Program-made: the position numbers and the translations under genes | Shown: one piece after another, positions 13,767 through 18,012 of the stretch | Layout: each line of letters opens with the position of its first letter | Position numbering within the stretch: the first letter of the stretch is position 1 | Notes under the pieces: generated by a model | Seen by the model: the letters and a program-made list of their open reading frames with translations, nothing else | Databases searched by the model: none | Told to the model about the DNA's origin: nothing | Assembly: GCA_016187225.1 (NCBI GenBank) | Contig: JACPKC010000007.1 | Coordinates: 7,654-71,653 of the forward strand | Origin: Candidatus Berkelbacteria bacterium | GTDB taxonomy: Bacteria > Patescibacteriota > UBA1384 > JACPKC01 | Length of the DNA stretch: 64,000 nt | Direction: 5' to 3'

Positions 13767-13814
13767 AAGTTTTGAACAAGTTGGTTGAGTAAATAATTTC
13801 GCTGAATGTAAAAC

Positions 13815-13869
13815 TTGGCGGTGAGATTTTACACTTTGCGCGAACCTTTTTTGAACGAAACGGCAACTG
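13815..13869. repeat. Inverted repeat arm A (55 bp), partner 16074-16128
   Basis: TTGGCGGTGAGATTTTACACTTTGCGCGAACCTTTTTTGAACGAAACGGCAACTG is the exact reverse complement of 16074-16128. Confidence 0.97.
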
Positions 13870-13954
13870 ATTCGCTCCGCCGCCGCTCGCTGACGCTCGC
13901 CAGCCAGCAAAAAAGTTTTCTCTGCTTTTCTTTTGCGCGCGCCGGATTTTTTCT

Positions 13955-14058
13955 TCCTAACAGAGCAGGCGGCGGGGCTCAAACGCTCGGGCGCGGCGGA
14001 ATTCCCCCACCCCCCCTTCCGCCGCGCCCTCGCTGAGGCGGCGAAAAATTTTTGCGAT
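13955..14058. repeat. Inverted repeat arm B (104 bp), partner 15933-16036
   Basis: Exact reverse complement by manual alignment, including homopolymer lengths (C5-A-C7, A5-T5). Confidence 0.97.
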
Positions 14059-14063
14059 AAATC

Positions 14064-15047
14064 TTAGGTAGAAAGATATTTCTTTTTAAGCGAAATGGAC
14101 ATATAGCCAACGCCAATCATGGCAAGTCCCGCTATAACAAGAGCGAGAGGCCAACCTAATCCGCTTGAGAAATATTCAGAAGTGATTTTGAGAATATAGG
14201 CCATAAGAAAGAGTGTACCAAATGTAAGAAAGGCCTTACTCTTAATTTGAACGCTAAGAAATAACGCACCAAAAACGAGGCCGGGATAAATTAACTCCCA
14301 AAATACATTTTGGTTCGGCTTCCAACTTCCGAGCGTAAAAGCCGCCCCCAAAAAGCCGAGAATACCAAAGCCATAGAGAAAACCGGAAAGTGAAACACGC
14401 TCGTTTTTTGAAAAGGCATACCCTAACAACATATAAGTAATACCAGCGACTAATACACGGTATTCGTAGAATTTCCAATTGTCAAAATACGCACCGCCGC
14501 CAATCATAAAACTTGTGAAGCTGAAGAAAAGCCATGTTCCAAATAAAATACTAAACAAGGTAAAAATGTTTTTTCGGAACACAAGAAGCGACAATAAATA
14601 AGTTCCCAACATTATTCCTGAAATTAAACTTTGCGTTCCATAACTGCTGGCGTCAAAACCAGCGTTATCAAACACAACCCAAAGACCCATCGGCGTTACG
14701 AGGGCAGAAATAAGATAGAAGGCAGAGCCAACAGTTTCAGTACCTTTATTTTTGCTAAATAGTAATCCGACAAAATAGGCCGCTATGCCAGAGCCGAGCG
14801 TAGCCAAAACTTTTGTTCCAAATCCAAGTGTATGCCAATTTTGCCAAAGTAAAATTGAAATACCTAAAAAAACAATCGCGCTACCAATGTAGTATAAAAT
14901 TTCAGCGACACCGAGCTTTTTTGTCAAAACAACATCTGTTTTGATTCCGCTACCTGAATCGTAAGCCAAGTCTAATTCTTCTTTCGAAATTACTTTTTGC
15001 TCGGCGAGCGACTTTATGTATTGTAAAACTTCTTCTTTGGTTGTCAT
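14064..15047 (-). CDS. DUF2157-like polytopic membrane protein (element cargo)
   Basis: Short soluble N-terminus, then YYIGSAIVFLGI...QNW and about 9 TM helices; AT-rich. Confidence 0.7.
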   Translation of the reverse strand: MTTKEEVLQYIKSLAEQKVISKEELDLAYDSGSGIKTDVVLTKKLGVAEILYYIGSAIVFLGISILLWQNWHTLGFGTKVLATLGSGIAAYFVGLLFSKNKGTETVGSAFYLISALVTPMGLWVVFDNAGFDASSYGTQSLISGIMLGTYLLSLLVFRKNIFTLFSILFGTWLFFSFTSFMIGGGAYFDNWKFYEYRVLVAGITYMLLGYAFSKNERVSLSGFLYGFGILGFLGAAFTLGSWKPNQNVFWELIYPGLVFGALFLSVQIKSKAFLTFGTLFLMAYILKITSEYFSSGLGWPLALVIAGLAMIGVGYMSISLKKKYLST

Positions 15048-15053
15048 ATATTT

Positions 15054-15584
15054 TTATTTTATCCAGCCAATAAAACGGAAATTATTATAATACGAGCTTC
15101 CGTTTAGCTGGAGATTTAATTTTTTACTTACATTATGACCTGATAAATATCGGGCATTGTAATCTGTTCCTCCCCAGAAAAACGGAAAGAAGCCACTATC
15201 CCGACTTCCATAAACCACCTCAAAATCATCGGACGATTTTACACTCGAATCAAGATTCAAGTTTTGAGCCTCTGTGAAAGAAATTTCTTTAGCCTCATTT
15301 TTGGCAACATCATAAATATACAATTTTGATTCCACTCGTGGCGGGTTGTAATTTTGATTTTCTGGTTGCTTAATCTCATTTTTTACCAACTTATCATTTT
15401 GAACAGAATACTGATGACCGCTGTTGTAGTAATAGTAGGAATCATCACCACTTACATATAAAAAATTAAAATGTGGTTTTATAAAAAGTCCGGGCAGATA
15501 AATGCTACCAGCCACGAACAAAATCATCAATATTGGAATAGAGATACCTAAAATTAAAGTTATATTTTTTTTGATTATTTCCAT
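15054..15584 (-). CDS. Membrane-anchored hypothetical protein (element cargo)
   Basis: N-terminal TM helix, Tyr/Asn-rich, ends FIGWIK; 6 nt from the next gene. Confidence 0.8.
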   Translation of the reverse strand: MEIIKKNITLILGISIPILMILFVAGSIYLPGLFIKPHFNFLYVSGDDSYYYYNSGHQYSVQNDKLVKNEIKQPENQNYNPPRVESKLYIYDVAKNEAKEISFTEAQNLNLDSSVKSSDDFEVVYGSRDSGFFPFFWGGTDYNARYLSGHNVSKKLNLQLNGSSYYNNFRFIGWIK

Positions 15585-15643: not shown

Positions 15644-15841
15644 CTATTTTAATAAATCCTCCATAGGAACACCTAATGACTTGGCGATTTTTTGAATTGT
15701 TTGAACACTTGGTTTTGTAACAACGCCACCCTCAATTTTCGTAAGGGTAGAATATTTGATGTCCGCTTTCTTCGCCAAGTCGTCTTGCGTCAATCCTTGT
15801 TTTGTTCGTATTCGTTTTATGTTTTGTGATATTGTTGCCAT
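15644..15841 (-). CDS. XRE/Cro-family HTH transcriptional regulator (element cargo)
   Basis: MATISQNIKRIRTKQGLTQDDLAKKADIKYSTLTKIEGG...PSVQTIQKIAKSLGV. Confidence 0.9.
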   Translation of the reverse strand: MATISQNIKRIRTKQGLTQDDLAKKADIKYSTLTKIEGGVVTKPSVQTIQKIAKSLGVPMEDLLK

Positions 15842-15932
15842 AATATCCAAAGTTTGATAGTATAGAGTTATGAGGTTATTTGTCCTTTGCTCACAAACTA
15901 ATGATAGCAAACTTTGTGGATTTTTACCAGTA

Positions 15933-16036
15933 ATCGCAAAAATTTTTCGCCGCCTCAGCGAGGGCGCGGCGGAAGGGGGGGTGGGGGAATTCCGCCGCGC
16001 CCGAGCGTTTGAGCCCCGCCGCCTGCTCTGTTAGGA
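15933..16036. repeat. Inverted repeat arm B' (104 bp)
   Basis: Reverse complement of 13955-14058. Confidence 0.97.
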
Positions 16037-16073
16037 GCAGAAGCCAGCAAAAAAGTTTTCTTTTCCTTTTAGA

Positions 16074-16241
16074 CAGTTGCCGTTTCGTTCAAAAAAGGTT
16101 CGCGCAAAGTGTAAAATCTCACCGCCAATAGAAACTTCGCGATTTGAAAGGGTTGCTCCGCGCGGCCGCGCTCCGCAAAATGGTTTGCCGCTTCGCGGCA
16201 AAAAGGCTCACTGGGCAAAAATCAAAGACGGCGGATTTGTT
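16074..16241. repeat. Internal inverted attP-like copy (arm A' 16074-16128 overlapping arm C 16122-16241)
   Basis: 16074-16128 is the reverse complement of 13815-13869; 16122-16241 is the reverse complement of 17655-17785 apart from an 11-bp indel. Confidence 0.95.
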
Positions 16242-16262
16242 TGTTTCGTATCTAAAAACAAT

Positions 16263-17834
16263 ATGAATATCAAACCAAAATATTTTCTCTACGCTCGTAA
16301 ATCAACGGAAGATGACGACCGCCAAGTAATGAGCATTGAGGCACAACTTTTTGAATTGCGAGAATATGCGCGTAGAGAAAATTTTGAAATTCTGGAAGAA
16401 TTTCAAGAGGCGAAAAGCGCAAAGACACCGGGTAGAGAAATTTTCGGCGAAATGATGGCGAAGGTAGAAAAATCTGACGGCGTAGGAATTTTGGCGTGGC
16501 ATCCTGACCGTTTGGCTCGCAATTCCATTGACGGCGGACGCATCATTTACGCCGTAGACACGCACAAAATTATTTCTTTGCGCTTTTCGACATTTTGGTT
16601 TGAACCAACCCCGCAAGGTCTCTTTATGTTGCAAGTGGCGTTCGGACAATCTAAATATTACTCGGACAATTTGGCTGAAAATATCAAGCGAGGAATCCGC
16701 CAAAAATTGCGTCGGAAAGAGTGGCTCGGTCTCGCGCTTTTCGGTTATCAAAACAATCCGCTAAAACGCAATATTGAGCCGCACCCGACCGAAGCGCGGA
16801 TTGTGAAGTTGGCATTTGAGGAATATGCGAAAGGTGGCCACTCTTTCGTTTCTCTTGCGCAATTTTTGGCGGATCTCGGCGTTGTTTCCAAAAACCGAAC
16901 GCCACTTGCCAAAGTTTCCATCAAACGACTTCTAACAAACAAAGCATATCTTGGTTTTCTGAAACACAAGGGCGAATGGTTGGATGGAAACTTTGAACCA
17001 ATTCTTTCTCCCGCATTGTTTGAAGCCGTGCAGAAAATTTTGAAAACGAAAGAGCGGCCGCGCCATCGCCGCGCAAAACACGATTTTCCATTCACCGGAT
17101 TATTTCGTTGCGCGGAGTGCGGCAGTATGATTTCAGCACAATGGGCGGTCAATCGCTGGGGCACTAAATATCGCTATTACAGATGTTCCAAAAAACGCGG
17201 CCGCTGTTCGCAACCATATATCCAAGAATCGGAGCTGGCGCGGCAAATCAAGGCACGGCTTCAAACAATCTCGCCTTGCGACAATCTCACTGATTGGATG
17301 TTGGATAAAGTGAAAGAATGGAAACGCGAGGAAACTTCCGCATCGCAAAGCGAGTTTCAAAATCTTTCCGAAAATATCAAAATGGCAGAAGCGAAAATGG
17401 AAAAATTAGTTTCCACATATTTAGATGGCGACATTCCCAAACAAACTTATCTCAAAAAGAAAGACGAGATTTTGCTCGCTTCTGCCGTTTTGGAACAAAG
17501 GAAGAAAGATTTTGAAAACGGGAGAAAAAATTGGGTCGAACCCCTGCGGGAATGGATTTTAGATACGAAACAAGCCGATTTTTTGAGCAAATCGGAAAAT
17601 TATCACGAAATCAAAACATTTGTTCAAAAAATCGGAACGAACCCTCGGGTTCGTAACAAATCCGCCGTCTTTGATTTTTGCCCAGTGAGCCTTTTTGCCG
17701 CGAAGCGGCAAACCATTTTGCGGAGCGCGGCCGCCTCGCGGCCGCGCGGAGCAACCCTTTCAAATCGCGAAGTTTCTATTGGCGGAGACGGGAGGATTCG
17801 AACCTCCGAGAGGATTGCTCCCCTAACGCATTAG
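16263..17834 (+). CDS. Large serine recombinase (resolvase, recombinase, Zn-ribbon and coiled-coil domains)
   Basis: YARKSTE catalytic Ser motif, QVMSIEAQ, SAK-x-PGR, DRLARN, CAECG...YYRC...C Zn ribbon; ATG 16263; stop lies antisense inside tRNA-Ser. Confidence 0.95.
   Translation: MNIKPKYFLYARKSTEDDDRQVMSIEAQLFELREYARRENFEILEEFQEAKSAKTPGREIFGEMMAKVEKSDGVGILAWHPDRLARNSIDGGRIIYAVDTHKIISLRFSTFWFEPTPQGLFMLQVAFGQSKYYSDNLAENIKRGIRQKLRRKEWLGLALFGYQNNPLKRNIEPHPTEARIVKLAFEEYAKGGHSFVSLAQFLADLGVVSKNRTPLAKVSIKRLLTNKAYLGFLKHKGEWLDGNFEPILSPALFEAVQKILKTKERPRHRRAKHDFPFTGLFRCAECGSMISAQWAVNRWGTKYRYYRCSKKRGRCSQPYIQESELARQIKARLQTISPCDNLTDWMLDKVKEWKREETSASQSEFQNLSENIKMAEAKMEKLVSTYLDGDIPKQTYLKKKDEILLASAVLEQRKKDFENGRKNWVEPLREWILDTKQADFLSKSENYHEIKTFVQKIGTNPRVRNKSAVFDFCPVSLFAAKRQTILRSAAASRPRGATLSNREVSIGGDGRIRTSERIAPLTH
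17655..17785. repeat. Inverted repeat arm C' (131 bp) inside the recombinase 3' end
   Basis: Reverse complement of 16122-16241 plus an extra CTCGCGGCCGC; ends on the TTGGCGG core. Confidence 0.95.
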
Positions 17835-17869
17835 CAGTGCGTTGCCTTCAGCCACTCGGCCACGTCTCC
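17780..17869 (-). tRNA. tRNA-Ser(GCT)
   Basis: GGAGACG...ACGCA-CTGCTAA-TGCGT, long variable arm, GGTTCGAATCC, ends CGTCTCC-G-CCA; 90 nt. Confidence 0.97.
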
Positions 17870-18012
17870 TGATCCACAAGTACTATATTGTACGCACACA
17901 CTCTCGAGGCGGCAAGGTTAAACAAAAGCATTGAAGGCGACCCGGCGCAAGGCCGGAATAAAGTGAATGAAGAAAATGACCGACTCCTCTTCACTGCGCG
18001 GAGAGTTTAGAA

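Follow-up and report, generated by a model that had tools for sequence, protein, structure and literature searches.

A conserved recombinase tail encoded across the crossover core of a tRNA-targeting island in Candidatus Berkelbacteria

The window, a stretch of 64,000 nucleotides from a Candidatus Berkelbacteria bacterium (GenBank assembly GCA_016187225.1), contains a 3.97-kb island of the large serine recombinase (LSR) type at the 3' end of tRNA-Ser(GCT). The targeted gene, tRNA-Ser(gct) at 17780..17869 on the minus strand, is intact despite the island. The recombinase ORF spans 16077..17834 on the plus strand; with the family-typical start, ATG 16263, the gene covers 16263..17834 and codes for 523 amino acids as integrated, the last 15 codons being antisense to the tRNA. 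The presence of an N-terminal Resolvase catalytic domain (PF00239, E 3.4e-23), a Recombinase domain (DBD1; PF07508, E 1.4e-15) and a Zn_ribbon_recom domain (DBD2; PF13408, E 2.1e-12) identifies the product as a large serine recombinase. The motif YARKST with S12 is invariant in 14 ORFs that carry the native tail described below and nearly so in 60 relatives. Long helices predicted at residues 337-384 and 390-440 correspond to a coiled-coil insertion, and the top Foldseek matches are full-length serine integrases (9dxh_A, E 1.5e-15). The putative function of the enzyme is integration by attP x attB recombination. The cargo comprises an XRE-type helix-turn-helix (HTH) protein and two membrane proteins, all encoded on the minus strand and divergent from the LSR gene: an 88-aa XRE/Cro-type protein (15644..15910; HTH_3, E 1.9e-16), a 176-aa protein with an N-terminal membrane segment and without a family match (15054..15584), and a 327-aa multi-pass membrane protein (14064..15047) with a weak DUF2157 match below the Pfam cut-off.

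Three sites share the core TTGGCGG. Site 1, at the left junction, is attL-like (core 13815..13821, plus strand). Site 3, at the right junction, is attR-like (core 17779..17785, plus strand), and here the core complements the end of the acceptor stem, the discriminator base and the CCA. Between them lies site 2, an intact attP in inverted orientation (15933..16241, minus strand), with the P arm at 16119-16241, the core at 16122-16128 and the P' arm at 15933-16128; it ends 22 nt upstream of the LSR start codon. The left P' arm (13815..14058) is the inverted-repeat partner of 15933-16128. According to a repeat search, 13815-13869 and 13955-14058 are 100% identical between the two P' arms, while 13870-13954 differs. 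The first of these stretches is repeat I3 (13815-13869 with 16074-16128, 55 nt, 100%), and homology picks up again in repeat I1 (13955-14058 with 15933-16036, 104 nt, 100%). The right P arm (17655..17788), which codes for recombinase residues about 465-508, has its inverted copy at 16119-16241, as given by repeats I2 (80 nt, 100%) and I4 (52 nt, 98%). Repeats I1-I4 thus define the layout B-core-P'-cargo-(P' inverted-core-P inverted)-LSR-P-core-tRNA, in which segments are flanked by recombination sites in inverted orientation, as they also are in 66/80 genome and 48/70 metagenome relatives.

The island is an insertion: two genomes of the same family lack it at the syntenic site. There ppsA, tRNA-Ser(gct) and tRNA-Arg(gcg) are adjacent, at distances of 88 and 441 nt, and no recombinase gene intervenes. 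An attempt to rebuild attB base by base from relatives failed because the intergenic flank was too diverged. Comparison with Rfam returned tRNAs as the only matches, and RNA structure prediction for the 5' leader of the recombinase gene gave a z-score of -0.68.

The core lies 15 codons short of the 3' end of the LSR gene, and the integrated form therefore ends in residues read from the antisense strand of the tRNA gene. The integrated ORF, which overlaps tRNA-Ser(gct) in antisense, closes with ...REVSIGGDGRIRTSERIAPLTH-stop, giving the C-terminus ...EVSIGG-DGRIRTSERIAPLTH-stop. Because the crossover core is located within the recombinase gene, insertion swaps the last 15 residues of the enzyme. 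The alternative end is found at the left junction, where the inner P' arm, an attP half-site (13817..13870, plus strand, with CGAAC at 13841-13845), reads GG-EILHFARTFFERNGN-stop in the LSR frame. This left copy has the codons GGT GAG ATT TTA CAC TTT GCG CGA ACC TTT TTT GAA CGA AAC GGC AAC TGA and translates to G-EILHFARTFFERNGN-stop, the TGA being at 13868-13870; the attP-form gene accordingly ends with ...EILHFARTFFERNGN-stop. The first-pass annotation had claimed an in-frame joined tail that closes at this TGA, with both tails 15 residues long, and this is confirmed in the sequence. Its claim that arm homology stops at the stop codon also holds, repeat I3 ending inside TGA 13868-13870. A copy of the tail is indeed stored at the far end of the island, as had been proposed, but this is not the only one: the intact inverted attP immediately upstream of the LSR gene contains another, and the native tail is therefore stored twice. 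At this second place, the joined reading (...REVSIGGEILHFARTFFERNGNC... on the minus strand) is present as contiguous DNA at 16031-16201, so that no hypothetical circle is needed. Here TGT replaces the TGA stop, and the frame continues for another 14 codons. The equal length of 15 residues of the two tails is a coincidence; in relatives the tRNA-read tail measures from 2 to over 170 residues. An attP core inside the ORF, with integration altering the C-terminus, could be read directly at three sites.

Relatives were collected from the genome_contigs set, in which 570 stretches were confirmed by tblastn and 80 loci were kept. The LSR ORF ends in or beside an antisense tRNA at 59 of the 80 loci, the targets being tRNA-Ser, Glu, Arg, Ala, Lys, Gly, Val or Leu. 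An inverted copy of the P arm is present just upstream of the gene at 66 of the 80 loci, with 100% identity in 44 of those. Tails reconstructed from these homologs, which had been suggested as a check on the native end, were in frame past the core and carried the motif [AGVL][RL]T[FHY][FY] at 55 of the 66 genome loci; at six of the 11 motif-negative loci the contig does not reach the core. Of the 40 loci with enough upstream DNA, 26 have the far-end copy. The far-end P' repeats are at least 200 nt long at most loci and mostly 100% identical, and the cargo amounts to 1.4 to 7.6 kb. This cargo, divergent from the LSR gene in 22/28 islands, includes restriction-modification systems, Shedu, GmrSD, AAA_15 ATPases, SocA and metabolic enzymes across the family.

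The metagenome_contigs set served as a replicate. The inverted copy was present in 48 of 70 usable loci and the in-frame tail motif in 34 of these 48, for example as QLLNEARTFFEQ and DILKLARTYFER. Identity among the metagenome relatives goes down to 44%, and tRNA-Pro, Trp, Asp and Phe appear as additional targets. The viral_contigs set contained no relative. At protein level, 7,774 clusters matched at E <= 1e-30 among 7,991 candidates scored. The native tail was found in nine of the best 120 protein clusters, most of the others having tRNA-antisense tails, and in 4/70 metagenome loci. On a quick tree the tRNA target tracks the LSR clade, with 23 changes against a shuffled mean of 38.2, and near-identical enzymes occur in differently named lineages.

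Some relatives depart from the common arrangement. At L021:9515-14310 the recombinase adjoins no tRNA but a further 4.8-kb segment with its own 234-nt inverted repeats (98%), from which it follows that islands can be chains of repeat-bracketed modules. At L087:182-2001 two copies of tRNA-Ala(tgc) in inverted orientation flank the recombinase gene, the repeats being 215 nt long and 90% identical; this looks like the outcome of recombination between the spare attP and another tRNA gene. A palindromic crossover dinucleotide was considered as a general cause of odd end combinations and discarded, the minimal cores ending in GG, GA or GC.

The genome of the window contains a second full island (L170, G000:C7:248900-254400), which is inserted at tRNA-Ala(ggc) and has the identical three-site layout. 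Its reconstructed tail, CLFKKVRTHFAENPN-stop, is aligned with that of the window and has its stop at the same codon. The occurrence of the same layout in this paralogous island and in the 66/80 and 48/70 relatives is therefore more than chance.

Several further elements of this genome were observed. The cargo of the paralogous island encodes PRPP-synthetase-like, nicotinate phosphoribosyltransferase-like and SLOG-family proteins, which together resemble an NAD salvage set. At G000:C6:63225-63407, a roughly 150-bp element consisting only of a P' arm and a P arm is enclosed by two copies of TGGCGG at the 3' end of tRNA-Ser(gga), with the tail codons EIIPFARTFFERKTD-stop. It looks like a derivative without cargo and recombinase that could be moved in trans. 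Beside tRNA-Leu(tag), a 4.6-kb module (L169, G000:C3:110300-115200) is enclosed by inverted P' arms (235 nt, 94%) at C3:110438 and C3:115059, one of them 99% identical to the left arm of the window. Its genes are for a TdeIII restriction enzyme, a DNA methylase and a LexA-like protein; a recombinase gene is lacking, and the module may be non-autonomous cargo with a symmetric attP. Two recombinase paralogs on the same contig are without inverted repeats: one (G000:C3:11258-12748, minus strand) has its stop 9 nt before tRNA-Pro(tgg), and the other (C3:28199-29752, plus strand), which also lacks the N-terminus, reads through tRNA-Gly(ccc). These are probably decayed islands.

Conservation of the tail was analyzed at the protein and the DNA level. 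In the LSR frame, 65 codon changes along a minimum spanning tree of 52 unique tail DNAs (30 nt each) were synonymous and 79 were nonsynonymous. With an expected synonymous share of 0.25 this gives a binomial p of 7e-8, in a test that takes no account of position-specific DNA constraints or sequence relatedness. The ratios for the other two frames were 26/105 and 4/115. In the metagenome replicate the LSR frame gave 45/76, versus 14/104 and 20/102. In the 120 nt ahead of the core, stops occurred in 1/66 sequences in the LSR frame and in 19 and 36 in the other frames. For the 12 codons past the core the corresponding counts were 0/56, 32 and 38; the other frames were closed in 29-68% of sequences. 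The aromatic position of the tail has F, Y or H codons only, CTN codons being found 0 times versus 7.3 expected under the assumption that the two positions vary independently. Two hydrophobic tail positions are hydrophobic in 52/52 unique sequences. A test for entropy periodicity over these 30 nt gave a non-significant result (Fisher p 0.26).

A DNA signal overlaps these codons. The Arg codon of the tail is CGA in 50/52 unique sequences, a near-invariance explained by CGAAC, which serves the attP half-site as its T-loop-like outer binding motif. In 42 of 57 P' arms CGAAC starts 19 nt past the last shared base, and in 46 of 55 tRNA arms the T-loop CGAA starts at 13 nt, the difference being +6 in 38/49. 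In attP/attB pairs of serine integrases the DBD2 motif is reported to lie further out in attP, with a shift of 4-5 bp in the solved systems (10.1101/2025.01.03.631226). The 6 bp outward shift of CGAAC in P' relative to the tRNA arm has the same direction. The P arm carries a mirror inner motif, GAAACTTC, which coincides with the EVS codons. The common core measures 3-10 nt in 27 islands, with the crossover dinucleotide inferred, and the minimal shared core in relatives is as short as 3-4 nt. Judged from motif and spacing, the 'RT' of the tail is a mimic of the T-loop. This mimicry explains why tRNA-read tails have xRT two codons earlier, and how the targets of one enzyme family have come to include at least twelve tRNA types. 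A promoter-like site pointing at the recombinase gene (TTCAAA, 18 nt, TAAAAT; 16088..16117, plus strand), recognized by its match to the consensus, is the reverse complement of tail codons. Among 49 unique relatives, a -10-like TAnnnT is present at this site in 30 and both boxes are acceptable in 21, the -35 box being weak. The reverse complement is thus a possible third constraint on the tail DNA.

Judged from these patterns, the tail is conserved at both the protein and the DNA level, and selection acting on the protein is very probable. The proposal that the P'-encoded tail is the native end agrees with its being in frame, conserved family-wide and subject to a coding-type pattern of substitution. 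The motif (A/V)RT(F/Y/H)F, put forward earlier as a protein signal, shows a frame-specific coding signal, but its (A/V)RT part is partly a DNA signal (CGAAC).

Modelling of the native-tail isoform, as had been suggested in the first-pass annotation, predicted a helix that docks on the enzyme. The modelled protein was L072, a natural LSR with the native tail. When the alignment was limited to the 14 native-tail ORFs, AlphaFold2 predicted a helix at 509-523 with a mean pLDDT of 85 over residues 511-520, preceded by a linker (483-505) with a pLDDT below 50. With a mixed alignment, which consisted mostly of sequences with tRNA-read tails, residues 481-524 had a pLDDT of about 30 and were unstructured; this is read as alignment noise, yet it remains a negative result. 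Predicted as a complex, in which one chain is split into two, the body (1-480) and residues 481-524 obtained a score of 0.67, whereas the best of 3 controls scored 0.00. This mark is reached by 116/157 solved complexes and 2/215 mismatched pairs, counts that hold only roughly here because our own alignment was used. The runs agreed in at least 47% of contacts, and the pLDDT of the partner was at least 45. Confident contacts connect tail residues 508-524 to residues 335-350, 420-432 and 471-480, which correspond to both ends of the coiled coil and to the last helix. The tail is thus predicted to be a short helix at the end of a disordered linker, which packs against the coiled coil at its base and against the final helix of the zinc-ribbon domain, and the docking prediction supports binding of the tail to the enzyme body.

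The SPbeta integrase is the best solved match both by sequence (9dxh_A, E 1.1e-15) and by fold. The profile alignment to 9dxh_A covers query residues 7-446 only; as the HMM alignment stops at residue 446, it includes no homology between the tail and SprA residues 530-545. According to the SPbeta report, these SprA residues, with F532/F534, pack where DBD2 meets the inter-hinge coiled coil, and the C-terminal element is described, from earlier work cited there, as essential for excision and largely dispensable for integration (10.1101/2025.01.03.631226). The tail found here is predicted to contact the region equivalent to that of SprA (YokA), and by this analogy we infer that it takes part in directionality control. 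The SPbeta enzyme differs in having a fixed tail and a separate recombination directionality factor (RDF), whereas here the tail is encoded across the crossover point, so that the recombination reaction itself removes or restores it. Serine integrases need an RDF for excision, and the island may encode one: its cargo includes an XRE-type HTH protein and two proteins of no assigned function.

On balance, we lean to the view that the attP form of the gene encodes a conserved tail that is replaced by tRNA-antisense residues on integration, and that the swap likely changes the directionality or activity of the enzyme. In the mechanism we propose, the native tail would be a directionality or activity element, and insertion into the tRNA gene would remove it. 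The integrated enzyme would be effectively tail-less, because its tails are so variable in length, and would probably be locked. Enzyme with the native tail would be made only from an excised circle or after inversion of the recombinase segment; inversion between the inverted repeats of roughly 125 bp would make the gene read into the spare inverted attP. Since the tail is conserved and is predicted to dock at the place that sets direction, the swap is likely a built-in lock. If the SPbeta rule is applied, the tail is missing exactly when excision needs it, which is sensible only with inversion. Inversion is the weakest step of the mechanism because the orientations are strongly biased and no inversion was seen in this organism. 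A more far-reaching version, which we regard as doubtful, is a self-editing integrase: direction would be set without a separate factor by moving the 3' end of the gene. Insertion into a tRNA gene would remove a directionality helix and so lock the island in, and inversion onto the spare attP or excision would restore the helix and unlock the island. The same 30 bases would then have three purposes, as a T-loop-mimic binding site, as the code of a toggle helix and possibly as promoter and operator of the gene.

The tail might instead have no function as protein, its 30 bases being kept as a P' half-site and perhaps as a promoter, with the ORF simply continuing to the next available stop and the two isoforms behaving alike. 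A pure DNA role would account for the invariant CGA codon, which keeps a fixed distance to the core 6 bp beyond the tRNA-arm value, for the mirror motif of the P arm and for the -10-like TAnnnT in 30/49 unique sequences. It also agrees with the non-significant periodicity and with the fact that intact genes tolerate tRNA-read tails of any length. Such a role does not explain that the synonymous excess occurs in the recombinase frame only, in two independent sets, or that this frame stays open (stops in 1/66, versus 19 and 36) across a variable linker of ~40 codons that lies outside any 50-bp att site. The hydrophobic positions are kept in 52/52 sequences, yet the equivalent of the -10 T6 is kept in only about three quarters, and the helix and docking predictions favor a structured tail. 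We consider a tail without protein function a rather improbable reading. It is hardly credible that misassembly of a metagenome bin produced the duplicated arms and the second copy of the tail. The genome is a draft of 12 contigs and the contigs of many relatives break at repeats, but two islands of this genome and more than 100 independent assemblies, some of them titled as whole chromosomes, have this layout in common, and the arms differ by a few percent in 22/66 loci.

The island could also be mainly an inversion switch of the Hin or R64 shufflon type, in which the segment with the recombinase gene, and likewise the one with the cargo, would be turned around between inverted sites by the recombinase itself or by homologous recombination. 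The far-end and spare copies would then serve to alternate the C-terminus without any excision of the island. Inverted repeats enclose each of the two segments and adjoin one another at cores whose orientation alternates. A flipped arrangement exists in L072, a locus of another genome, where tRNA-Ala is inverted upstream and the gene reads into P-core-P'; the arms of L072 are only 90% alike, which makes an assembly choice an unlikely explanation. L009 and L087 show other combinations of ends, and the occurrence of the native tail in 9/120 protein clusters (the best 120) and 4/70 metagenome loci fits alternation as well. However, the orientation is far from 50:50, with 59/80 genes reading into tRNA and 2/80 into P', and the cargo is divergent from the recombinase in 22/28 islands. 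Recombination of attP with attR is not known for large serine recombinases. The stretch is contained in 20 sequencing runs, all as Logan contigs, and in the contigs of four of these 20 runs neither an empty-site joint nor a strand-changing joint was found. The only joint leading back (17778 to 13815) cannot be told by sequence from the internal inverted site and is uninformative on circles. The short native-tail contigs L100, L118, L138 and L168 begin or end inside repeats, for which reason an excised circle and a flipped integrated copy look the same in them, so that they could equally be circles. An inversion switch as the main function is thus unlikely, and replacement of the tail on integration is still the reading we favor.

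Parts of this arrangement have counterparts in known systems. In mycobacteriophage BPs, attP reportedly lies near the 3' end of the repressor ORF and integration changes the C-terminus of the product. There a tyrosine integrase acts and the repressor is altered; here the serine recombinase itself is altered, and its tail after integration is tRNA antisense of arbitrary length. As in a BPs-type switch, the two products may differ in activity or stability. In SSV1-type partitioning attP is located inside the gene of the recombinase, a tyrosine integrase, and integration splits this gene into two non-functional parts. The position of attP within the recombinase gene is thus similar, but here the exchange is confined to the last 12-20 codons and leaves an uninterrupted ORF. 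For TnpX of Tn4451/Tn4453, also a large serine recombinase, the circular joint creates a promoter and recombinase expression differs from that of the integrated form; the joint changes transcription there and the protein C-terminus here. Inverted recombination sites around a segment that may hold the recombinase gene are known from Hin/Gin, the R64 shufflon and the yeast 2-micron circle. The shufflon swaps C-terminal ends of a protein, and the 2-micron circle has two inverted copies of its own site. These systems are not known to integrate into a chromosome via the same sites; here the orientations are strongly biased and inversion is putative. The ssrA islands of Dehalococcoides are small cargo islands at the 3' end of a small RNA gene with a serine recombinase (PMC3146451). 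A spare inverted attP and a tail that crosses the core do not appear in the abstract-level description of these islands (PMC3146451). In literature viewed mostly at abstract level we found no published description of the three-site layout. New here are the geometry of T-loop mimicry, the frame-specific substitution tests, the predictions of a tail helix and its docking, and the link to the C-terminal element of SPbeta.

Large serine integrases are leading tools for genome engineering, and how they choose direction is an active structural question. If the proposed mechanism is true, a direction-setting C-terminus that extends across the crossover site of its own gene would be a natural experiment on directionality and would offer a design idea for integrases that switch themselves off. 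With over 7,700 protein clusters (E <= 1e-30), the family is a major and apparently undescribed carrier of gene flow in Patescibacteria.

The arms have some additional features. The two P' arms of the window differ only mid-arm, with 85 nt (13870-13954) in one and 37 nt (16037-16073) in the other. A 28-nt piece in these mid-parts (13902-13929 and 16042-16069) is in direct orientation and hence inverted relative to the P' arms; the longer mid-part also contains a G+C-rich hairpin sequence. Perfect G+C-rich hairpins (e.g. TTTGCCGCGAAGCGGCAAA) occur within the coding P arm at 17694-17712 and 17725-17745, where the conserved F(A/V)AxRR segment of the disordered linker is encoded. Summed over contigs, the depth of the arms (spans 13792-13955, 15924-16087 and 17728-17891) in four groundwater runs exceeded that of the unique cargo and flanks by a factor of roughly 20 to 150, the ratio being taken where cargo or flanks were covered and one of the four runs having no flank cover. 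The arm sequences are therefore common to many genomes in those groundwater communities.
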